Notes: a model not told the origin generated them from the sequence alone. A stretch of DNA of 59,561 bases, filler included, from Sphacelaria rigidula (GCA_964200075.2; 5 parts of 5 records of this genome joined end to end with filler, not necessarily neighbours in it); one strand, 5' to 3'. Positions 389 to 47,730 are shown, counted from the first letter of the whole stretch. A program made the numbers and translations.

Positions 389-3300
389 GTGAGCAGAGAT
401 CACTCGTCGTTGTTTTGAACAGCGTCTTGCTTCGCGGACAGTGTCTTATAGTACTCTACCGCAGGTACAGGTTGTTAAAATGAGGCCACGGTCCTGTGCG
501 AAGCACGCCTGCTCTTATTGATCCTGATGTCATAGGCCCGTGTCAGATCTACGCGTCGCCGGTGATGGGCGAAGAGGCTGTTCTCGCTAGTTATGCAGCC
601 CGCTCTACTGCATTCTTTCGCAGCAGCTAAGCATGGTGGTGCCTTCTAGAGTAGTCAGCCTCACTAATGACAGCTCTCCTGCTGTTGTCGAGTAGAAATG
701 CGATCCGTGGTCAAAATCTCCGACATATCGGATGTACGAATGTAAGGACATGATCTGGATTAAATCCCCGGATTAAACGATCTGACGGATATTCGGAGTT
801 GCAGATAACCGTCGCGTTTTCCCTCGAAATGTTTATTATTTTCTCGGCGGGTTGACGGATTTCGGGACAAAAATACAGTATGCAGTAGACGTCGTGAGCA
901 TGCCGTTCGGTGTTCGGCGCGATTCATTGTGCAGTGAAGCACGAGCATCGTGGCATGGCTTATCGAGGCGCCAATGATCGGAAAGTCACAGAATATCAAA
1001 TTTGTATGAGATCTACGTGATGACCCACAGTCTGGTGAATGTGTGCGTCACGTATCGGTGTATCGGCAGCCAATTGCTGGTATTACTGTGCTGTACTGTA
1101 CCCCAATGGCGACAGCTACACAACGACAACGAGAGACGTTGACGTTAGGCCACCGCCACGTGTAACTATTCGTGTGCTCCTTATTACAATATGCGGCCAG
1201 AACAGAACACAGCTTACAATCAGCAAGTCAGAGCAATGCGTGTACGTCACGAGCTCGTCACGGCTACTTTTACTGTTAGACCACAGAACTAGCTCTGCAT
1301 GTGCCCAAGAGCTCGAGTTTACTTTCTTCAGAGCTGTGTCCCATCGCCCTAGACGCGTTGACATCCATCTCACACGCACGTCCTCGCCGCGATGTAGGTG
1401 ACAAGTTAGATACATGCGCTGCGCTGTGTCCTGTTGTATACTATTCACTGTACCGTGCTACTGGATACTGGGGAGTATACGCTCGGTGTTTGCTGGCCAG
1501 ACGGCCTCGAGAGGCGGGGAAAGTCGCGAATCCGTCGGGTTCAAGTCGACGGATCACAGACTAGCAATGACCATCCCAATCTGAATTGGGGGTACGGATT
1601 ATCCGCGGATTGGGACAATGCCGCGGATCAGATGTCAAAATTTGGAAAATCCGGATCGAATCCATCAACTACGGATCAGATCACATCTGGACAAACAAGA
1701 GTACCGAATTTTACGTACGTTCTCCATGTTCTGCATTCATAAACTTCTCTACAAATAACGCGTTTATACCGAAGGGTACACTTCTGTGGGAAGCTCGAGG
1801 GACGGGATAACGAAAAAACGAAAAAAAACGTCGTCCGATTTGCAAACGCGATACCACCTCCTTCGGTGAAACCTAGAAGCTTCTTTTCCGCTCGTCACCT
1901 TTGCAAAAACTTATCCTCATTTTGTAAAAAGGGGTCGGGCTGTTGGCCACATTTTGTTCTGTTTTGCTCGAAGGGGAGCATTGGAGAGCGGCGGGTTGAC
2001 CTCGGTGTGGTGTGCGCCTGCCATACATCATGAGCCAGAGTTGCATCTTTCACGCAAGCTCAATAAGGCTAGAAACACATCGAGCAGTCACCTCCTGCGG
2101 CGCACACGGTTATAACGGGGTGAGGCAATGGCCGATGTCACTTGGGGGACGGCAGCAGCAGAACGACGTAGTCGGGGTCTCGTGGACGACAGACATGTCA
2201 TTGGAGGGTCGCCCGCAGCGGGTTGTGTCGAATTTTACTGCGACCATGACGGCTTTTCGGCAACTGGGGGGAGAACATCGCGCTTGTTTCCCGGGGTTAT
2301 TCGTAGTTTGCTTCCCGCAGAAGTCTGCGGCGATATGGGATTGTTTCTTCTTGGCGAGCGTGTATTTGTTGCCACAAGCATGGTCGGGTATTTTTCACCA
2401 GGGGAGAATGACTACTTGAACACAAACTAATCCATGCGTTTTCTTCACGCAGGCGTCGGGTACAGTGCGCGCCTTTTACTTTTGCTGTTGCCACGTGAAC
2501 CTGTGTCTTTGTCCGCGTCCGGTCGCGTGTTACCGAGAAGGACACGTCCGGTTTTTGTTCACGCATCCCTTGCTGTCGCGCCCTGGTGCTCTAAGTGGTG
2601 CACCAATAGCCTATCAGAAACGAAGTCATTGGGCAGAATCTGATTTCTATCTCTGAAAGTATGAAGACGTGAGCAGCAAAAAAAGTTTATTTGACGAGAG
2701 CCGAAGGAGTGCGGGAGTGGTCATTATTCAGTCCTAGTTATCAAAATGTGAGGTAGGTACCGCGGGAAAGCTGAGTTCATCCCTTGCGATTACCTCTCGT
2801 CTTGAGGAAGGGAGTTCGGAGTATGACCCCAAAAAACAAGCTAGAAGTACTTGCTGTTTCCCCCCACACCAATCGGCAGTGATGTCACGTAATTCTGTCT
2901 TGTTTACGATAACGATCGCTTGTTTCCCGCACGCATTGATGTGCAAAGTGTGAGACCGAAAGGGACCATGCGAATGACACGCCCAACAACATGAGTGTAG
3001 GTGCTACACCTCTTACACTACACTCACGCCGCTTACATCTCCGGCACCGCCACGGTGGAGCCGCCGCGATGCCGACTCCTTTTTCTAGTACGTACTTGTT
3101 CACAGAAGAAAATATTCCTCCAAGTGTCGTGGTTATTTCGTCCTACAGGCCGGTTCACGCGTATCACCCGAAACTGTGCCATCATCAATTGCCTTCACCA
3201 GTACTTACCTATTCGTCGTATATATGATGTCGTATTGACCGCGGTGAACAAAGAGAGGGTGGCGTAGTCGAAGTTTTGTTCAAGGCCATAGCGATGGTGC

Positions 3301-3961
3301 TAAGGGCAAGAAGGTACCTCGACCAATCAGCGTCCTTCAAATTGTTCTGAAATTGAAAATACGGATTCCCACCATCACTCATGCAAAGTTTCTCAATGCT
3401 CGATGATATATGTGTGTTTAGATTTTCAGAGTCTAACTCCAAGAATTGGCGTGAACATTTGCGGGTGAATGGATTTGGGGTGACGAGTGTGAACCAGCCT
3501 GTATGTAACGGTCCAGACCGACGGCAATGTTCAACCACCAGCTGATACGACAAGAGTGGCGTTAGACTGCGAGGTACACAAGGTAAGGTTGGCTTGTTCG
3601 TGTTGGAGCAGAGCATATATCGTCGACGTTCGGCAACACTTGTATGGCGCTTTACGTGCATTGAGGATGAGGTGGCGCTGCAACACCAGCTTTATCGACC
3701 TGAGGCAACATGCTGGTGTCTTGCAAAACATTGTGCCAACCGCTGTCCACTTTGTCTACTGGTCTACGTCAGTCTAGTGGCACTTCGATGCGTCCAGCAC
3801 GAGGGAACATTCGCTATTGAGTGCCGTTGTCAGAATCAGCCCTGAGCCGTTGGCGTGAGCGATTGATGTGCTGTACATGCGTGTGCGACCGGGAAGCTTG
3901 TGCACCAACGCTTGACATCACGGATATTTGTATGCCCCTGTCCTGTCCCCTGTACTATCAG

Positions 3962-4184
3962 TGACAAGTGCAAAGGGTTTTTGAAAAGTCCTGGCAGCGT
4001 CATGATGGGCGAAGGAAGCCACAGCGGACCGAAGGTGCCTTCAGGAGATTCCTTGCCGCTGGTACTGGTACCAAGTTCTGCAGGAGCGGGACCATGCGCC
4101 AACGAGCGATGCCTCATCTGGCACCCGGAAGACGAGGTTCTTGTGCCGATGGCTGAAGCACGAGGGCCACGAAATTCATCATCG
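3962..4184 (+). CDS. Fe-ADH-family protein, internal exon
   Basis: cag acceptor in phase 2 matches the previous exon; gtaaag donor. LPLVLVPSSAGAG resembles the Fe-ADH 'LP.I.IPTTAGTG' motif. Confidence 0.75.
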
Positions 4185-4717
4185 GTAAAGGATACTATTA
4201 TAATGTTCGCCAACATTTTCGGTGCTCCATCTAGCGGACATCGCGCGTACTACTATGTTTCCCCCGTACACTAGGGAAGTGTGCAAAGCCGAAATGGGCT
4301 GCGCACTGCACAGTTACGTTGTGTTCAGGTGGAGACTTGGAGTTACACTCATTGATACATTTTTTTGGCTGTTCTGGCTACTTGACATGCGGTCGAAGGG
4401 ATGTGAAACTATGCGTGATTTTAGTGCGAAACTCTGTGCTGATTCGTTGGCCCAAAGTAGCCAAGTTATTATTTCACGATAACACTCGTGCTACCTACCA
4501 CGTTGACACTCCGAGAAAATGCTTACCGCCAAGGAGAGCCCTAAAATATCTCACTGCTCGTTTTGAGCTTCGATGCCTCAAGTGTTCGCGTTCTACATTT
4601 TCTCCAGGAAGCAGGGTTGCACGGAGCATTCAATCCGTGGCCAATCTTTGCCATCAACACGAATCATGCCTAGCTCGTGAGCTCCATCGCCAATGTCCGG
4701 TTCTTGCTCTCCACCAG

Positions 4718-5020
4718 ATTGCCTTAGTTGACGCCGAACTCTGCGAGCATATCAGCAAGGAACAGACGGTGGCCATGGCGGTAACCGCGGTCTCCGCCTG
4801 CCTTGATGCAATTGTTGCATCCGAGTTGGACATGGCAAGCTCTTTGCCAGATGGCAAGGCCCAGTTACTCCGAGAGCTAGGCACTCTTGGTGTCAGTGAG
4901 GTCGGCTCGGGGTTGCCGTTGGTGCTGGAAGGCAAGGATATGCAGGCGAGGGAGCTGCTGACTTCTGCCAGCTTGCGTGCTGGGCAACTCTGTCACATCA
5001 CACCAGCACCAGCGACGCAG
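4718..5020 (+). CDS. Fe-ADH-family protein, internal exon
   Basis: Pyrimidine tract plus cag acceptor, CAG|gtgcg donor, phase 0/0. IALVDAELC resembles 'AIVDPEL'. Confidence 0.75.
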
Positions 5021-5320
5021 GTGCGTTTTACTTCAGGCGGCCCTATCACGTGTGCGTATTCATGTACAGTACGAGTACATTTGCATGTGTTTGGGACACT
5101 CAACATGAACGGTTATTGGATACGTCAAATTGCACTATTAATATAACACGGGTTTGTGTGGCTACTGCTAGTACGTCTTGCCATATATGAACTCCTGTGG
5201 CGTTTTCCAGCTCTAGATTCGTATTGCGCGGCGAGCGTGTTTTGCCATGATGTGAGTGACCGAAGGGTGAACAGCAAATGCTTGATCTATCTTGCTGTGC
5301 TGTTTGACGCTGCGTGGCAG

Positions 5321-5468
5321 ATTCTCGTTCGAGCTGCGGGATCTCTATTATGCCGTCATGACTACACTTCTGTGTGTGCCGCGGTGTTCCCCCACGTGGT
5401 GCAAGACATGGTCGAACAAGCGAACTCCTTTTCTGGCAGTGCTGACGTTTCGGAAGCCTATTCTCGAG
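5321..5468 (+). CDS. Fe-ADH-family protein, internal exon
   Basis: cag acceptor (phase 0), G|gtgag donor (phase 1). HDYTSVCAAVFPHV resembles 'HG..CA..LPHV'. Confidence 0.7.
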
Positions 5469-5802
5469 GTGAGGTTTGGTGGCATGAAATCGCCTAGCAG
5501 TTGGTTTAACTCGGAGCACATTGGTGTACTTGAGACTGAAGTGTTTCACTGGCACCCAGAGTAAACGAACGCGGTACGCGGGCGTGCCACAAGAGTTGAA
5601 ATAGTGTCATGTTCCTACTCCAAGTAGTAGTGCCTTGCTCGGAAATATTCACATTGACGAGGGCTTGCCCGGCGTCAGATGAGCGCGTCCCGTGTCGAAG
5701 AGCTCATAGTCCCCTCTGCACAAGAAGCACTTGCTATCCTGCTCCTAATGGGCACACGTCACGTCACGTTCCGTGCGTCCCCTCTTTTTCTCTGGCCACC
5801 AG

Positions 5803-6059
5803 CTCTGTCTGGAGCGGCAAACGCCCTGCTAGGTGGAAACGACCTAGATGGCTCAGCTTTGGTGGCCTGGTTGGAGAGCTTACAGAAGCAAAAGTTGTTG
5901 CCGCACGCTTCCTTGTCCGATTTGGACTCGATGGTAACACCCGAGGAAGTGTCGACAAACGTGGAGATGTTGTTGGCTATAGAGGATGACTCAGATGCGG
6001 CTGATCGCCTCTTCAGCGGAAGCGGCGTGCGGGCTGTCGCTGAGCGAGCAATCGGCTAA
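5803..6059 (+). CDS. Fe-ADH-family protein, terminal exon
   Basis: Pyrimidine tract cctctttttctctggccaccag, phase 1 consistent with the previous exon, TAA stop at 6057-6059. Confidence 0.7.
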
Positions 6060-7284
6060 CGTTTCGTCGATATTTTTTGTTCCTGTGTTCTGTGGCTTGT
6101 TTAATGTCTCCTTGGTTGGTGCCTATTCATTTGTCTTGCTTGGCGCATGCTGGCCATCGTGCTAAACGTCTAAATGTGAATGACAAAGAACAGGCGTGGG
6201 TGACGCGTTTAGTGCCATCGTGCAGTTAGCCATGACTGATGGTTGACACCAAATTCGGAGACCACTATGTCACATTCTGTGATCAAGGATCTCTACCTTG
6301 TGGCATTACAGGGTCGTCTCGTCCATCACCGATCGCTGGTATCGGTTGCACCGGGTTAATCAGCGATCAAATTGCTGGGAGAACTTTCCATGTTCTCTTC
6401 TGCTTGCCGAAATGTACCCACCTTGCTAACAAAATGTTTCGGCGCGTACGCATAAATTAAATGGGCACTACTGTAATCGCGATATATCGACGCGTGGTGT
6501 GTCTGAAGCTTTCTGTGAAACTCCTTCTGCGACAATTTCCCGCTATTCATTACAAACCCATTACACCGCCGATTGCAATTACTATCAGATCATGTTTGAT
6601 GTCCCGAATGTCATGGATACGTGATGCTTTGCACAAGCAGAGGTGACTGTGGTGGGAGCATAAATGCTCAAATCAACGCGCATGAAAAATGACAAATCAT
6701 TCAAGGGTGGTGCCGCGATAACCCCTCCGCCCCCCCCCCCCCCCCCCCCCCCCCCCAAACCCCCCCCAAAAAAAAAGACAAAAAGGGCAAGAGAAGTGCG
6801 TCGAACANNNNNNNNNNGCAGAAAGAGCAAATCGAACCGCCGTAAAAATAAACAAATCTTCAAAGGTGGGTGCTGCGAAAACCCCTCCCCCCCCCCCCCC
6901 CCCCACAACCAGCCTCAAAACTGTCACGAAGAAAATGGCCATAGAGCGCATGATAGCTGGTTCAACACCGCGTGAAGCGCCTCACATGAGCGACATTGGT
7001 GGAAACGATCCCAAGCGTGGGAGTTCGCAGTTGCTCGGGGTGCTCGGCCTTTGTCATGGTGACTATCATCACGATTTTGCCTTCTCAAACCAGCCACTTT
7101 TCTGGGGAAGGCATCGCGGGATTACTCTCAACGATGACTTGTTGTTATCGCCCCCGCCAAACAAACGTATGCTTTGCATCCCCTAATGGTTTAATGTTTC
7201 GACGTGTGTACAGAAAACATAAACATTAACCGCGTGCACAAAACCTTCCTGTCCATCCATGGGTTACGGCTAAGAAACGACATC

Positions 7285-8160
7285 TGGTCGCCATTGGGGT
7301 GGAGAAAACGTGGGCTCGACTCCCGATGCGATGCGATTGAGAGTGAAACGCGGTCAATTAGTTGATGCATCGTTTCAGTTCCGAAATGCCCCTCCACTAG
7401 GCTCGATATTCTTTCTGTAGTAGCTTGCTACTGAGGCCCTTGATATCTCTGAGTAGGATACCGACGTGTAGCTGTAAGGACACGCCAGTGATGGAGACAA
7501 AGGAAAGCACGCACGGGATGAAAAATTGACTGAGTTAAAGCGAAGAATGATCAAAGCCACTCTCAATCCGCGCTCTACTCTCAATCTCACGAAAACGTTG
7601 TTGTACGGTATCTGATTTCCACCGTCGAAAGCATGAGTACGTGAAACAACGTTTTCGTGAGGTTGAGAGTAGAGGATACGATTGAGAATGAACAGCCGTC
7701 AATTAGTGAATGAGCCGTTTCAGTTCTGAAATGCCCCTCCACGGGGCCCGATATGCTTTCTGAAGTAGCTTGCCACTGAGACCCTTGATATCTCTCAGTA
7801 GGATATCGACGTGTAGCTGTGAGCACACGGCAGTGATGGAGGCAAAGAAAAGCACACACGGAATGAAAAACTGGCTAGATTCAAGCGAATTAACGAAGCC
7901 GCTCTCAATCAGCGATCCACTTTCAATCTCACGAAAACGTTGTGAGTAAACTTGGAGTAAACAAAAAATAGTTGACTGAGTTTGTTTGACGAGAGTTGAC
8001 GCGGTGCGAGAGTGCTAATCCAAGCCGCGACACCACAACGCAAGGCGTGTACTGGGGAGAGATGGGTTGATTCCTTGAGACCACGGGTTTGTCTCGAGGA
8101 AGGAAAGGGATTCACAGTCTTGGGGAAAAAAATACCGGTGGCGAGACACAATAAAACACG
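7285..8160. repeat. Dispersed repeat family A, with an internal ~350-bp tandem duplication
   Basis: Shared blocks (cccgatgcg; ttccaccgtcgaaa; gagttgacgcggtgcg; caaggcgtgtac.gggga) recur at 9810-10070 and 46150-46440. 7335-7600 is duplicated at ~7680-7940. Confidence 0.7.
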
Positions 8161-8359: not shown

Positions 8360-8553
8360 AGCGAATTTTTTTTCAGGACACGTAAGCCCCAAGATCGAAA
8401 ATTCGAGTTTTTGAGGGATGGGGGAGGGGTAGGGGGGGGGGGGGGGGGAGGGCCCCCCGCCGGGGGTGCCCACGGGGGGGAAGGAAACCGCGGAAANNNN
8501 NNNNNNTTTTTTTACGCGGAACGGGCCCCCCCGGGGAGGGGAGTTGTGTTGGT

Positions 8554-8595
<42 letters not shown>

Positions 8596-9520
8596 AGGCA
8601 CCCAGCCGTGTGTCCCCTGGTTTTTTGCCGAAGCGTTGGCGGATGCGGTCACCTGCCGTAGACAGTAGAGATCCTTATACATGATATTTCTTATATTACA
8701 CTTCATATATTATATTCCATACATTATATTCCATATATTATATTCCATATATTATATTTCATACATTATATTCCATATATTATATTCCATATATTATATC
8801 CCATGTATTATATTCCGTATATTGTATTTCACATATTATATTCCATATATTATATGGAATATATTATATTCCGTTTATTGTATTTCATACATTGTATTTC
8901 ATACATTGTATTTCATACATTCTATTTTATATTATATTCCATGTATTACATTTCATATACTGTATTTCATACATTATATATCATATAATATATAAATGTA
9001 GGTCTATATTATACAAATGCATATTTTCCTTAATATACACTATATTATATATTATAATCAATATGTTCATGTATTATATATGCTATATAATACATATGAT
9101 ACTTATGTTAGAAAATATATTTATATACATGTGTGTAAAAAAGGAGCAGAAGAAGCAAACATACACCCCGCAAAGCCCGCCAAAAGTTTCGGATTTTGTC
9201 AATGTTCATTGATCAATTTCTTCCAACAAAGTTGACAGAAAATATTTTTAAAAAATCAGGATAATTTTAATCGTCGAAAAAATGCCCTCCGGCATCTGAG
9301 GTCATCGGGACAAAACGGGCAAGGAGCAGAAGCAGACATACGAACCCCACGAAGCCCACCATACTTTTCGGTTTTTGTCAGCGTTTATTGGTCAATTTCT
9401 TGTAGTAAATATGACAGAACAAATCAAAACAGTGTTTGTTGATCAATTCCTTGCGACAAACTTGACGAAATAATATCGAAAAAATGATGACAATTTTCGA
9501 AAAAATGCCCTCCGGGAGGA
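8360..9520 (+). mobile_element. Non-autonomous repeat family B, copy carrying an AT-rich minisatellite
   Basis: 8360-8677 and 9140-9520 match the reverse complement of 59097-59230 and 58690-58875. Confidence 0.6.
8678..9130. repeat. AT-rich minisatellite, ~14-bp unit (TATATTATATTCCA / TACATTGTATTTCA)
   Basis: Directly visible tandem units decaying toward 9130. Confidence 0.85.
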
Positions 9521-11834: not shown

Positions 11835-11934
11835 NNNNNNNNNNNNNNNNNNNNNNNNNNNNNNNNNNNNNNNNNNNNTTAATTAATTAANNNNNNNNNN
11901 NNNNNNNNNNNNNNNNNNNNNNNNNNNNNNNNNN
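11835..11934. other. Artificial contig linker N44-TTAATTAATTAA-N44
   Basis: Six-frame stop linker within Ns, 100 bp, identical at four positions. Confidence 0.97.
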
Positions 11935-18475: not shown

Positions 18476-18706
18476 CTGTACACGCTCTGGCAGGTACTGG
18501 AAGACATCGTAGATTTGGTCTTTGAACCCGCGCGAGAGCATCTCATCTGCTTCATCTAGAACAAACAGACCTACGCGATCCAGGCGAAGAGCGCCACGGC
18601 TGATCATGTCGTATGCACGCCCGGGCGTGCCCACGACGATGTGCACGCCGTTCTGGAGGGTACGAATGTCGTCACGCACCGCGGTACCTCCCACACAGGC
18701 GTGCAC
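18476..18706 (-). CDS. eIF4A: eIF4A exon (GG, Ib, DEAD motifs)
   Basis: VHACVGGT...VGTPGR...[18 protein letters not shown]; phase 0/0. Confidence 0.97.
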
Positions 18707-19117
18707 CTGTCGAGGCGGAATAACGGCAAATACAAGCAATCGCGATAGCAGACAAGGGCAATGTGGAAAGGAGAAAAAAACAGCGGTGAGGAGAGGGTGA
18801 GGAGATGCGGCGGAGAGCTCCATCCCTCGTGTTGACTACACATTTACACATGTGTTTGGAGTCATGTGTTCAGCGTAGTCACATAATCGAGGAAAGTTTG
18901 AAGAACTTTTCGAAACTAGCTTCCGTCAGGTCAACGATACATTTCGTTGAGTACATACCGGAGGAATGATACAAAAGCTCGGTGTTGATACAGCTTGGGG
19001 AAAAACACCAGCGTGGGGTGGCCGCAACTCGAATTGTTTCATACGTCGGACGAAGACGAGTGTGACTTGTGGCATTCGCACTCGTTGAGCTGCTCGTCGA
19101 CCGTAAAAACTCATGAA

Positions 19118-19325
19118 GCGAGCACTCGGATAATTGCTCGTTGTGGAAAAAATGAATTAAGCGGGCACACAAGTCATCGCTTGTTGGGGGAAAAATCGAT
19201 GGGGTGAGCACTCGAGTCTTTGCTCGTTCTAGAAATAATTTCATAGGGCGAGTGCTCGGGTCATTCCTCGTTGTGAAGAAATATGAATAGGGCAAGCACT
19301 CGAGTCATTGCTCGTTGTGGTGAAA
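19118..19325. repeat. Minisatellite, ~44-bp period with palindromic core, array 1 (5 units)
   Basis: Consensus gcgagcactcgagtcattgctcgttgtgg plus ~15-nt A-rich linker at ~19118, 19161, 19204, 19248, 19292. Confidence 0.8.
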
Positions 19326-20357
19326 ATTAGCCCTTTCAAGACCGGGTCTCATGAACGACCAATGAGCCTGGTTAGGGATGACGTGTCTGACGCCTGCACA
19401 AAACAGTGGCATGATGCTGAAAATCCGTGGATGTAACCACAGGGTTGTGAGGAAGACCGAAAGTTTCATCCAATCTATTTTTTAGGTGCAAGGTGCGCAT
19501 TAGGTAATGTACATCTGGTGTGGCAAGCAGTATGGGTCGCGGTAGAAAACTTTCAACAGGATGCGGCGACCGGCTGGCCGCCCGCCACCTGTGGCCTTGA
19601 ACGATAATAATGTCCTCATCACTTTGCCACACAGCCTTTTGTGGTCAGGGTGCGCCGCCATTCCCCTCCTTGTTACATGCAACAATTTTTTTTCAACGGG
19701 TATTGGCGTTACGGCGAGCATACGTACAGTACAGTACAGAAAGTGCAGTACGCCTCTCCGCCTGCAGCAGCAGCTGCATACTCTCCAACACGTTATGGGC
19801 AGTTCTCAGCGACGGAGATCAGCTGCCTAAACGCAGCTGGTTCATCCTCGCCCACCACATACATGTCGACAGTGTTGTGCAAGCCATCGGCAGAGAAATG
19901 GGCAGATTTCACGACGGTGGCTCCCGTTGTCTTTTCACGGCCCACATGGGTTTAGTGCCTGGTGAAGATGACCACGTTGTGGTATGTACACCCCTCCCGG
20001 TTTCACCATTCCACCCTGTTTTGGTGTGATTAGTACGTTGTGATATAGGCTGGCGACCCACCTGGGAAACCCCGGGAACGCTTCAGTATACTGAATGCAA
20101 GTCATACGATGAGCCATACTCCGAGCACCCCGGTTTTAGAAAGCTGGGAAGGCAATCTGAGCCAGGGATGGCCCCAACACTACTTGTTGAAGTGACGTCA
20201 CACTCGGCAACAGTCCCCGCGCAGGTCGTTCGGATCTGGTCGATGAGTTCCGCCTCGCCGTGATTTGGCAGGTCGCCCCCTGACTCATGTTTTACTAGTT
20301 CACGAAGACAAATCAACCTCGTGTTAGTGAGGAGTCGGTCCTATGCATACGGGTTTG

Positions 20358-20700
20358 ACAGCATTCGAGTCAATGCTTGTTGGCTGTTAAAACTATTAGA
20401 GCGAGCACCCGGGTCATTGCTTGTTGTGGAAACAAACTTATGAGGCGAGCCCTTGAGTCATTGTTCGTTGTGGGGAAAAATTATCAAGGCGAGCACTTGA
20501 GTCGTTGCTCGTTGTGGAAACGAACCAATGAGGCGAGCACTCGAGTCATTGCTCGTTATAGTAAAATTTGGTAGGGCGGGCACACGAGTCATCGCTCTTT
20601 GTTTAAAAAAAGTAATGACTCGAGCACACGAGTCATGCTCGTCGTGTACTCAAAAAACATCCACGAGTGCACTCGTTTCGACGAGCAGTGACTCGTCCCA
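20358..20700. repeat. Minisatellite, ~44-bp period with palindromic core, array 2 (~7 units)
   Basis: Same consensus at ~20358, 20401, 20445, 20489, 20533, 20576, 20620. Confidence 0.8.
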
Positions 20701-21324
20701 TATATGTTGTTTCATTCATCATGAATTTTTCAGCATCACACCAGCACTCCGAGTATCGCATTATGGGTAGGTGGAAAATGGTGTCTAAAAATGACATATC
20801 TCCATGTGATGAGTCCCTTTCACAAAAACGCAGGCATCACGTGAAAAATCTCCACAATCTTTTGTAGCGTCATGAAAAAAACGGACGGAGATTGACCGTT
20901 CCGTCACCATGGTGAGAGATGGGGGAATCCCATAGAGTAAATGGTTATTATCGAGAAAAAACAGTGCGGATTCGATAGATACCCACTTCGACGGTAAAGG
21001 GGTGAAGTGGACGTAATTGTACTCGTTTTCACCAACACACTATGCTCCGTTTTTCCCCCATCCTCGAGGTGAAAATGTTTGGTCATGTCAGAGTGAGTCG
21101 GTGTATGCCAATGCCGACTTTTCCTTGTTGATTTCCTTCCCCAGTCACTTCTCCAGCCAGGTCCTCAAAAGATGGCAGCCCAGCGTTTTCGACTCCCACT
21201 ACATGGTAACGACAAATCTCTCGTGAGTAGAAATACCCCAAAATATGCGGTGGGGCATCAGCTTTCACACCAGGGTCAACACGTGAACTAGGCATGAAGA
21301 ACGAACTCGCGATGGGAAACTGAC

Positions 21325-21479
21325 CTGAAGCTGCATGTAGTCCCCGAGGGCGCGCACGACCTTCACAATCTGCTGCGCCAGTTCGCGAGTGGGCGCGAGC
21401 ACCAGAGCTTGGCACTCGGCAAGCTGTACGTCAATCTTCTGGAGGATCGACACGGCGAAAGTGGCTGTTTTACCCGTAC
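21325..21479 (-). CDS. eIF4A: eIF4A exon (motifs I, Ia); upstream Q-motif exons not found in the contig
   Basis: [17 protein letters not shown]...[15 protein letters not shown]; ccccag acceptor, gtcag donor. Confidence 0.96.
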
Positions 21480-22019
21480 CTGGGGTGAGGGAGGAGGACA
21501 TCATACCCGGCATACACAGTGTCCAATGAAGGATCCAAGGATGAGGGAAGGGGTAAGATGAGGGCGGCAGGATGAGGCTCTTGACATCGTTACCCTCACA
21601 ACACTGACGAGAGCAAATACAAGGAGCTGCTAAATACTCGAACCAAGGGAACACATTTGACGTACTGCAGTCATCCGCGGTTCTTGTTCCGAAAAGGCTA
21701 GAGCCCACGAACTCGCAACACGGGAGTCAGGGATGGCACACGTTACGTAGGGCGTCGGAGCATCGACGGATGATGACGCTAACCGTTTGACCATTGCAAA
21801 TTTGGATGGGCTCTTTTCGTAGTACAAAAGTACATTTGACTTGCTCAGCAGAATTTTTTCATCCGAACACCGGAAGGACCAGCGATTTCGAAGTACTGTG
21901 TTTTTAGCACTGAACCGCACATATAGCAATGGAATTGGGTGCAGTTCAGGTATCACGGGTGGCAAAAAAAATTCCAGGTCACATCGAGTACCGGCAATGA
22001 TGAGGCATGCATCAGCCAG

Positions 22020-22106
22020 GCAGCGGTCAGGTTGTCAGAGGTTCTATCAGTCATGAATTTGGTCAGACTCGAAAGATGGTATTGTGTGTGGTCATCACTC
22101 CGCTGC
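22020..22106 (-). ncRNA. SNORD2: Box C/D snoRNA, SNORD2/snR39B-like, copy 1 (sense to eIF4A)
   Basis: Minus strand: gcagcgg-a-GTGATGA...ACCATCTTTCGAGT-CTGA...ATGACTGA...ACCTCTGACAAC-CTGA-ccgctgc. 7-bp terminal stem, 72 nt from C to D, D' guide complementary to LSU CGAAAGAUGGU. Confidence 0.85.
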
Positions 22107-22253
22107 TGTATTACACGCCAAAACCAAATCTACTAGAAATGTACCGTCACATATAGGAGCTTTCGAAACCGTCGTGGGTAACCAAGATCTATCCTCCTTT
22201 ACTAACTATCGGGTGTGTAAGAGATGGAAACAACGAGATGGGTGGGTAGGAAC

Positions 22254-22346
22254 GCAGCAGCGGTCAGGTTCTCAGAGGTTCTTTCAGTCATGGATTTGGT
22301 CAGACTCGAAAGATGGTATTGTGTTTAGTCATCACCCCGCTGCTGC
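22254..22346 (-). ncRNA. SNORD2: Box C/D snoRNA, SNORD2/snR39B-like, copy 2
   Basis: Same boxes and D' guide; 10-bp terminal stem gcagcagcgg/ccgctgctgc; D-guide variant ACCTCTGAGAAC. Confidence 0.82.
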
Positions 22347-22497
22347 TCAACACACGGCAACAATCGAAAATAATGGGCGACTACACCCGGGAGCCCTCGA
22401 AATGCCAGTGGGTGATCGAGAGTACCGAAAGGCTTCCCTGGACTTGTTCTTGGATGAGTCGGAGAGGAAAATATAGCGGTGGATGCGTGAATACATG

Positions 22498-22584
22498 GCA
22501 GCGGTCAGGTTGTCAGAGGTTTTATCAGTCATAAATTTGGTCAGACTCGAAAGATGGTATTGTGTGTAGTCATCACTCCGCTGC
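22498..22584 (-). ncRNA. SNORD2: Box C/D snoRNA, SNORD2/snR39B-like, copy 3
   Basis: Same boxes, both guides intact, gcagcgg/ccgctgc stem. Confidence 0.85.
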
Positions 22585-23768
22585 TGTATTACACGCCAAA
22601 ACCAAATCTAATGGAAATGTACAATCACATTTAGTAGCTCTCGAAATGGCCGTGGGTGACCAAGATCGACCCTCCTCGAGTCGGCATCAGAAGTTTTCAG
22701 ATTTCGTGGTTGTTTTTTTCCTCTAGTTATTCTGGAGAAATATCCTTCACTACTACTTGCAAGCGCTAGCGCCGGTAGATTTAGATGCAAAAGTGTAGGC
22801 CGCGAGTAAACTGCAGTGCTCAAGTTGGTGTTTCTGGGGCGAAATGGACTCGATACCCCGTTCATCAGGAGGGTGTTATTGACCGTTCTTGGTCCAATGT
22901 AAGCAGTTCACCTACTCTTCAGCGACGAAACGGTAAATATTCAGATAAATGAACACGTAAAGAATCTTCCGCAATACCGATTGAGATCGTTCTTCCCCCC
23001 CATACTGCTTAGACCTCAGTCTAGCATTTTCGGGGATTTCCGCAAAACATTTTGCAAAAGCACTCGGAAGTGCTAGCGTCAAAAGTTTTGGTAAAATAAG
23101 CACCGTGCTCAAATCACAATCGCCCAAGTTGGTGCCATGGGGGCGACACCGGATCAAGATCCTGTTCATCAGGAGGGTGTGATTTCATTCACCGTAAATG
23201 GTGAAAGAAACATAGTTTTCGTGTTCTAGCGCAGTAACTGGGTGGAATTCCAAAAAATCAATATTTTTCGAGTCTTCATTTACATGATCCGGATCGAGTC
23301 AGTCCACCGGAAATACCAAGAAGCTAGGCACAACGCTCATACATGGGGATAAACCATTGTGGTGAAATGTGTAATTCAAGCAATCAAAGTTGCCTCCAGT
23401 GAGGAATCGGCGAAATCTAGCGCCAGTAATATGCGATTTTCGTAGTGAATCCTGGAGTGAAAAACGCTCGTGATTGACTCGCAGGCTCAAGTCACATCTG
23501 TAGTGTACGCCGAGATGGATAGAACAGCAGCAGAGGAACAGAGCTGCAAGAAGACAAGCAGACAGCAAGTAGTATGTTGCCGCCGCAGTGGGTCATTACG
23601 ACGCTCGTATATCAACATATCACCATCTTAGTACTCGTGTGGCTGGTTGTGTCTTCCCGTGGCAGCGAGCGCTGGCGCCGATGCCAACGGCAGCAGCCGT
23701 CATGCTGACGGGTGCAAGCAGTACCCTGGCGGTGCAGTATATCCGCACTACTGTGCTGTGCGTTGCTC

Positions 23769-23868
23769 NNNNNNNNNNNNNNNNNNNNNNNNNNNNNNNN
23801 NNNNNNNNNNNNTTAATTAATTAANNNNNNNNNNNNNNNNNNNNNNNNNNNNNNNNNNNNNNNNNNNN
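23769..23868. other. Artificial contig linker
   Basis: N44-TTAATTAATTAA-N44. Confidence 0.97.
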
Positions 23869-35699: not shown

Positions 35700-35799
35700 N
35701 NNNNNNNNNNNNNNNNNNNNNNNNNNNNNNNNNNNNNNNNNNNTTAATTAATTAANNNNNNNNNNNNNNNNNNNNNNNNNNNNNNNNNNNNNNNNNNNN
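35700..35799. other. Artificial contig linker
   Basis: N44-TTAATTAATTAA-N44. Confidence 0.97.
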
Positions 35800-47630: not shown

Positions 47631-47730
47631 NNNNNNNNNNNNNNNNNNNNNNNNNNNNNNNNNNNNNNNNNNNNTTAATTAATTAANNNNNNNNNNNNNN
47701 NNNNNNNNNNNNNNNNNNNNNNNNNNNNNN
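47631..47730. other. Artificial contig linker
   Basis: N44-TTAATTAATTAA-N44. Confidence 0.97.

Follow-up and report, generated by a model that had tools for sequence, protein, structure and literature searches.

Does an intron of eIF4A in a brown alga carry the same small nucleolar RNA (snoRNA) that vertebrates carry in an intron of their own eIF4A gene, and, if so, was this home inherited from a very distant ancestor or found twice? The question is raised by positions 22,020 to 22,584 of a 59,561-nt stretch of Sphacelaria rigidula DNA (GCA_964200075.2; the window), for which the original prediction proposed three SNORD2/snR39B-like box C/D snoRNAs inside an eIF4A intron. In the window, separate contigs sorted by size (11834, 11831, 11831, and 11831 nt) follow one another across artificial linkers (N44-TTAATTAATTAA-N44; 11835-11934, 23769-23868, 35700-35799, and 47631-47730), and neighbors in the chain are not adjacent in the genome. 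The eIF4A contig occupies 11935-23768, and the sequence past 23868 belongs to an unrelated contig. On the first contig, long C and G homopolymers at 6748-6920 and 8437-8600 flank two 10-N gaps and are likely low-quality assembly.

A repeat search identified three direct copies, at 22019-22198, 22256-22435, and 22497-22676, spaced by 237 and 241 nt, which matches the tandem repeat of about 240 bp described earlier. TRF, for which the spacers are too diverged, did not report this repeat. On the minus strand, all three copies contain the same elements in the same order: a 5′ stem, box C (GTGATGA), a guide (ACCATCTTTCGAGT) directly before box D′ (CTGA), a C′-like ATGACTGA, a second guide, box D (CTGA), and a 3′ stem. 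In copy A (87 nt, 22020..22106), recognized from this anatomy, from folding, and from a match to the Rfam family RF00055, these elements lie at 22106-22100 (5′ stem), 22098-22092 (box C), 22080-22067 (D′ guide), 22066-22063 (box D′), 22054-22047 (C′-like), 22044-22031 (D guide, GAACCTCTGACAAC), 22030-22027 (box D), and 22026-22020 (3′ stem). Copy C (87 nt, 22498..22584, minus strand) shares 97% identity with copy A. Copy B (22254..22346, minus strand, 93 nt with its 10-bp stem; Rfam core 22258-22342) is the most diverged of the three and has the same D′ guide as the other two.

The RUGAUGA near the 5′ end, the CUGA near the 3′ end, and the short terminal stem that define box C/D snoRNAs in general are all present in each copy. 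The stem arms read GCAGCGG (5′) and CCGCTGC (3′), with the stem of copy B lengthened to 10 bp, and on folding the terminal stem closed in every copy over 7-10 bp (z-scores -2.4 to -4.5). A 17-mer that spans the D′ guide and box D′ (CCATCTTTCGAGTCTGA) occurs three times in the window and in none of 100 shuffles. Thus, the boxes and terminal stem originally described are present in every copy, and the array is real and consists of three well-formed copies of a snoRNA whose functional family is known; as a molecule, this snoRNA is ordinary.

Tandem copies can also be decaying repeats or pseudogenes that have lost their function, and two features of the array would fit this reading. In copy B, the D guide (GAACCTCTGA[C/G]AAC across the copies) has a G for C four bases before box D, and every copy has a degenerate C′ box (the non-canonical ATGACTGA; two related loci described below, L092 and L011, have a canonical TGATGA at the equivalent place). 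However, the snoRNA parts are 92-97% identical, whereas the upstream spacers are only 49-71% identical, a difference that the original prediction had also noticed and the pattern expected if selection acts on the snoRNAs alone. In addition, none of the three copies has lost a box or a stem, the D′ guide does not vary among them, and the element is kept in a related species and in distant algae. In a run from a related species (X10), contigs match the snoRNA parts only (22300-22343 and 22498-22565) and the flanks diverge. The copies are under selection, and it is very improbable that they are functionless remnants.

To which family the copies belong was examined with Rfam. A scan of the whole window at the gathering threshold gave no matches. 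With a permissive E-value, a scan of the whole contig returned the three copies and nothing else that was snoRNA-like. The best match was RF00055 (the SNORD96 family, to which plant snoR39BY-like RNAs also belong), covered over the whole model (1-85), with 36.2 bits for copy C, 34.1 for copy A, and 32.3 for copy B, scores that do not reach the gathering cut-off of 43; the E-values were 4e-5 to 4.5e-4 in an 851-nt scan and 6e-4 to 6e-3 for the whole contig. The scan assigns RF00055 to clan CL00072 and reports only the best family per clan, so that a score for RF01299 would sit hidden under RF00055. In a published table (Hoeppner and Poole; PMC3511168), Arabidopsis snoR39BY corresponds to RF00055 and guides Gm812, the human homologue is RF01299 of clan CL00072 and guides Gm1509, and yeast snR39B is RF01299 and guides Gm803. 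The Rfam comparison suggested with the original prediction therefore yielded matches to a family of the same clan, at 32-36 bits, and these fell below the cut-off of 43.

The target is more specific than the score. The guide CACCAUCUUUCG is also found in the consensus sequences of RF00055 and RF00535 (Me28S-Am982). Relative to the RF00535 consensus, the algal guide has two extra bases before D′, which moves the predicted target from an A to the G two positions upstream. The guide picks the LSU G that lies two nt 5′ of the A targeted by U51/snR39, the feature that defines SNORD2/snR39B. The RF00055-type D guide, CUGCAAUU, whose target is presumably 5.8S rRNA, is not present in the window; GAACCUCUGACAAC precedes box D instead. 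By target and by clan, the snoRNA would be of the snR39B/SNORD2/snoR39BY type, an assignment that files it by function and not as a scored Rfam member. The earlier description of the copies as SNORD2/snR39B-like agrees with this, as the +5 rule applied to the D′ guide picks the G of (A)CNCG-AAAGAUGG and RF00055 shares clan CL00072 with RF01299. The proposed equivalence of this G with the yeast snR39B and human SNORD2 sites is also borne out by the same table, which gives Gm803 and Gm1509 (PMC3511168).

We compared the D′ guide with the LSU rRNA of L123, a eukaryotic LSU that carries ACUCGAAAGAUGGUGAAC, matches RF02543 at 1431 bits, and comes from a contaminant contig in a bacterial MAG record and not from S. 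rigidula itself; the two form 15 consecutive pairs, including one G-U, with a G opposite guide position 5. This is the complementarity to a conserved LSU segment that had been predicted. With the commoner ACCCG form of the rRNA (seen in L001), the guide has one A-C mismatch at position 3. The algal guide reads CGAGU, which fits ACUCG rRNA. In the 120 listed metagenome loci described below, the guide has the CGAG form in 23 and the CGGG form in 97, a split that fits a guide tracking lineage-specific change in the rRNA. We infer, with the target read from the rRNA of other organisms, that the D′ guide directs methylation of this LSU G. Two viral-contig matches to LSU motifs (L001 and L122) were ruled out as rRNA genes by Rfam.

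The D guide may have a target of its own. A core of this guide beside box D, CCTCTGACAA[AC], is common to five other loci (L092, L011, L036, L098, and L103), which argues that the D guide is used. A search of the L123 LSU gave no partner for the complement of the guide, GUUGUCAGAGGU, which we take to be a conserved segment of 18S rRNA. With 18S as its target, the D guide would probably place another methyl group, on an SSU rRNA U. The change in copy B falls at D guide position 4, adjoining the predicted methylation position. A search of viral contigs for an 18-nt SSU motif did not find it. The 12-mer GUUGUCAGAGGU also occurs in Candida rDNA probe sequences from a report in which the term 18S does not occur in the main text (PMC7118160).

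Next to the array lies its proposed host. tblastn with the Ectocarpus eIF4A (P0015) placed residues 78-404 on the minus strand of the contig. Together with spliced contigs, this search defined exons at 18704-18474, 17553-17445, 16887-16601, 16410-16298, and 15440-15358, the last of which runs to the stop; upstream of these, an exon at 21323..21480 encodes motifs I and Ia ((G)TGKTATF...GDYMQLQV) and is connected by the joint 18704>21323. All introns are GT..AG, and the exon boundaries are accurate to within 1-2 nt. P0015 scores 633.6 bits to eIF4A-I versus 609 bits to eIF4A-III, which makes the host an eIF4A-I type. Motif, tblastn, and 5-mer searches did not find residues 1-77 in the window, as the contig ends at 23768, so the 5′ exons that were reported missing are indeed off the contig.

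Evidence that the array is intronic came from public runs. Contigs from three runs of the same organism (X5, X7, and X6) contain five GT-AG joints through eIF4A at a contig depth of 3000-8000. At 21480, contigs of X5, X6, and X10 run into an exon that reads ...GKDCIAQAQS and is absent from the window; X10, from the related species, shows the same junction. Since the exon starting at 21480 is spliced to an exon beyond the contig end, the sequence at 21481..23768 on the minus strand, including the snoRNA array, is an intron of at least 2288 nt whose 5′ part lies beyond the contig end, as the original prediction had it. The acceptor CAG is at 21482-21480, and the intron is in phase 1, following the first base of the Gly codon in AQS-G|TGKT. 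The three copies lie 540, 774, and ~1015 nt from this 3′ splice site, with the last distance worked out from the coordinates.

The public model of a near-identical S. rigidula protein (P0014, 279 aa) starts at MQLQV and lacks the expressed exon of motif I, presumably for want of the 5′ exons, which lie outside the contig; the public eIF4A gene model of S. rigidula is thus truncated. The introns of the gene also contain other repeats. The host intron has a pair of 63-nt repeats (22818-22880 and 23122-23184, 75% identity), whose core at 22853-22886 is found in 11-16 contigs per run with diverging flanks and is a short, dispersed, transcribed repeat. Within the intron at 18705-21322, a 44-nt tandem repeat (20390-20646, 5.9 copies, 68% matches) is joined to 19109-19327 in many run contigs, forming a repeat family inside the intron.

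The spliced contigs in public runs reveal that eIF4A is expressed. The snoRNA copies have next to no cover in X5, X7, and X6, the only contig being one of 224 nt with a depth of 2.2 (22103-22321), which is uninformative on their expression. Box C/D snoRNAs typically accumulate as stable, discrete RNAs of about 70-100 nt, bound by fibrillarin, Nop56, Nop58, and Snu13; the single hint of such an RNA is a 77-nt contig with a depth of 34.3 on 22498-22565 in X10, the run from the related species, whose nature as an RNA run is a guess. From sequence comparisons, we consider it likely that all three copies are functional genes and encode the same box C/D snoRNA, the equivalent, judged by target, of snR39B/SNORD2/snoR39BY in this brown alga. 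The copies would be transcribed within the eIF4A pre-mRNA and freed from the excised or cleaved intron. Exonucleases would then trim each copy to its terminal stem and box C/D kink-turn, which would be shielded by the core snoRNP proteins that assemble on it. In the resulting particle, the D′ guide would pair with the LSU segment ACUCGAAAGAUGGUG, allowing fibrillarin to place a methyl group on the G fifth from D′, and the D guide would probably direct methylation of the SSU U.

The layout of the array raises the possibility that it is an independent polycistronic unit, with its own promoter inside the intron and free of eIF4A transcription and splicing. Three tandem copies, 540 to ~1015 nt from the 3′ splice site, would suit such a unit, and clustered snoRNA expression is common in plants (PMC7671301). 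However, the copies are on the host strand, and single-copy relatives have the snoRNA in short introns, 66-145 nt before the acceptor, an arrangement for which host-dependent processing is the simpler account. We therefore regard an independent unit as improbable and favor release from the eIF4A pre-mRNA. The spacing suggests that coupling to the splice site is tight in the single-copy relatives and that the array differs; as its copies lie 540 to ~1015 nt from the 3′ splice site versus 66-145 nt in the relatives, its processing may differ from theirs. By analogy with plants, a polycistronic intron RNA is the precursor suggested by the tandem layout and the long distance to the 3′ splice site. 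Plant intronic snoRNA clusters likewise have several copies in one intron, which implies processing from such a precursor, but the algal copies are all paralogues of one snoRNA, and the pairing with the host intron is kept across algal classes.

To see how widely the pairing extends, we scanned metagenome contigs for box C, the guide, and D′, which yielded at least 120 loci. Most of the 120 listed loci have all boxes and a terminal stem. Three of the matches (L008, L081, and L114) look like chance matches in non-snoRNA sequence. For the 83 unique complete members among the matches listed, terminal stems averaged 4.60 bp; when 5′ and 3′ flanks were swapped between loci, the mean fell to 2.18 bp, and across 200 shuffles it reached at most 2.65 bp. 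The stem sequences vary by lineage (gcagcgg/ccgctgc, atcgg/ccgat, aaaagg/cctttt, and gtag/ctac). As real stems are longer than mismatched ones and differ in sequence between lineages, covariation supports the fold.

In 16 of the 120 listed loci, eIF4A exons are present on the same strand, on both sides of the snoRNA or on the only side that the contig reaches. In L004/L110, L011, L042, and L092, the intron interrupts the Gly codon at exactly the position seen in the window. L004 is diatom-like. L011 is a chrysophyte, with an eIF4A 94% identical to a Paraphysomonas protein; the eIF4A of L092 is closest to those of Tribonema and Ectocarpus; and L042 is an AT-rich protist. Diatom hosts were recognized by eIF4A sequences 94-99.7% identical to named diatom proteins. 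In the other diatom loci (L014, L016, L020, L021, L027, L090, L093, L096, L097, L104, and L117), the intron follows the Thr codon in phase 0, 5 nt farther downstream, which looks like intron sliding because the intron content is the same. Three of these loci (L014, L020, and L117) have TTGA where related diatom loci have the box D CTGA. In the single-copy eIF4A loci, the snoRNA ends the stated 66-145 nt before the acceptor.

All 16 eIF4A-hosted listed loci have the CGAG form of the guide. A stramenopile-type eIF4A intron read-through that ends ...NTIFRG (P0496) translates the CGGGG form, so that eIF4A hosting is not limited to CGAG. Since the pairing is kept across three ochrophyte classes, it is old within that group, and the comparison of host intron positions that had been proposed places the intron at the same Gly codon in the chrysophyte, L092, and L004/L110, and 5 nt away in the other diatoms. 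The snoRNA would thus have kept its place in the eIF4A intron from the ancestor that brown algae share with chrysophytes and diatoms. Triplication in the Sphacelaria intron would be a later, local tandem duplication, after which the copies came under purifying selection as the spacers decayed.

Outside these loci, the same type of snoRNA has other homes. Among the 104 other listed loci, 17 have at least 1500 nt on both sides; as eIF4A exons, where present, are within a few hundred bases, most of the other 104 would be expected to show one if it existed. Inspection of flanks placed the snoRNA in introns of an NAT10-like rRNA acetyltransferase gene (L003, L052, and L120), an ABC-transporter gene (L032), and a KDM5/PLU-1-like gene (L036 and L098), and near eIF3c (L023 and L100). 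The plant-type D guide CUGCAAUU is present in 30 of the 84 unique members among the matches listed, and many of these members have no eIF4A nearby.

Is the pairing older than the ochrophytes? Human SNORD2 resides in the third intron of EIF4A2 (PMC10324135), the chicken homologue is in EIF4A2 intron 3 (PMC2653536), and the EIF4A2 host is kept in 84 of 109 vertebrates (PMC13736004). The host family is thus the same as that of human SNORD2, as originally proposed, and the accompanying suggestion that the coincidence is either ancient or convergent has been narrowed: the pairing is ancient within ochrophytes, and between stramenopiles and animals, convergence is the somewhat likelier of the two.

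We queried an exhaustive protein search with the N-terminal exon of L042 and classified the best 150 representative fragments. Of these, 83 diverge and six stop right after AQ.QSG; TGKT follows in 51, and the motif is missing from 10. Many of the fragments that diverge after AQ.QSG are stramenopile-type, and there is also an animal-type set. The animal-type P0128, for example, shares 96% identity over 74 residues with the eIF4A of a gall midge (P0146), which places an intron at the algal position in at least one insect-like eIF4A and keeps deep ancestry possible. P0471, a vertebrate-type transcript fragment, has its exon boundary after ...RELAQQ, and we take vertebrate EIF4A2 intron 3 to lie about ten codons upstream of the algal site. 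When the intron read-through of 100 fragments was searched in translation for the guide, a weak test, one protist case (P0496) and no animal case were found.

One reading of these data is that the home of a SNORD2-type snoRNA in this eIF4A intron (phase 1 at AQSG|TGKT) predates the divergence of stramenopiles and animals, that vertebrate EIF4A2 intron 3 is the same arrangement, and that other hosts reflect later moves. The target and host family shared with vertebrates (PMC10324135, PMC2653536, and PMC13736004), the stability of the pairing across ochrophytes, and the occurrence of the intron position beyond algae (83 + 6 of the best 150 fragments, some of them animal-type, including P0128) all point this way. 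However, neither the P0471 boundary nor the presumed place of vertebrate intron 3 coincides with the algal site, and AG|GT at the algal site is a good proto-splice site, so that introns could have been gained there in parallel. The snoRNA is hosted elsewhere in plants and in several protists, and the read-through of 100 animal-type fragments that diverge after SG contained no guide, again by a weak test. Further, a study of 44 genomes reports no homologous snoRNA in any of the 22 introns that it found shared across supergroups (PMC3511168). We consider such a deep common origin unlikely.

The other reading is that the snoRNA entered eIF4A twice independently, once in an ancestor of ochrophytes and once in an ancestor of vertebrates or of animals. 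eIF4A is a highly and broadly expressed translation gene, the kind of gene in which snoRNAs tend to settle, and the depth of its contigs runs into the thousands. The host of this snoRNA type does vary, from the NAT10-like, ABC-transporter, and KDM5-like genes to the neighborhood of eIF3c and the plant-type members without eIF4A, and the constrained-drift model of PMC3511168, together with the negative result reported there, also fits independent moves. Against this, two landings in one gene family near the same motif-I exon are a notable coincidence, and both pairings would then have to be unusually stable. We judge separate arrivals to be somewhat likelier true than false, and lean slightly toward independent recruitment into a highly expressed translation gene as the explanation of the vertebrate coincidence. 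The probability left beyond these two readings goes to mixtures that are undecidable.

How close the likeness to known snoRNAs is can be seen from their parts. As in human SNORD2 (EIF4A2 intron 3) and chicken GGgCD34, the D′ guide of the algal snoRNA is directed at the LSU G of CCCG-AAAGAUGG (28S Gm1509), and the snoRNA is intronic in an eIF4A1/2-type gene. In contrast to the single vertebrate copy, the alga has three in tandem; its guide reads CGAGU and fits ACUCG rRNA; and it has a conserved second guide. Human SNORD2 also pairs with the downstream intron to regulate EIF4A2 exon 4. Such pairing was not seen in the alga or its relatives in a crude test (RNAduplex, 12 pairs, 100 mononucleotide shuffles per locus, z -1.08 to +0.83). 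The plant-type RF00055 members have the CUGCAAUU guide, of the 5.8S type, whereas the algal D guide is another, and the best algal score of 36.2 is under the curated 43. Yeast snR39B is an independent gene and not intronic. With it and with Arabidopsis snoR39BY, the algal snoRNA shares its predicted site (yeast Gm803/805, Arabidopsis Gm812; PMC3511168).

For brown algae, our literature search found snoRNAs only as computational predictions (PMC4513859, main article). These algae now gain a well-supported snoRNA with two predicted rRNA methylation sites. snoRNA families are ancient, and their genomic homes are thought to drift; here, one snoRNA has stayed with one intron across brown algae, chrysophytes, and diatoms. 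A search of the literature outside supplements found no eIF4A-hosted snoRNA described outside vertebrates. As the vertebrate counterpart resides in the same gene family, the locus is a concrete, testable candidate for a very old bond between a snoRNA and its host. If the snoRNA and the phase 1 intron at the motif I Gly (AQSG|TGKT) have indeed been together since before stramenopiles and animals split, which we doubt, theirs would be the first pairing of a snoRNA with an intron that can be followed back to near the last eukaryotic common ancestor, and it would contradict the published finding that there is no such case.
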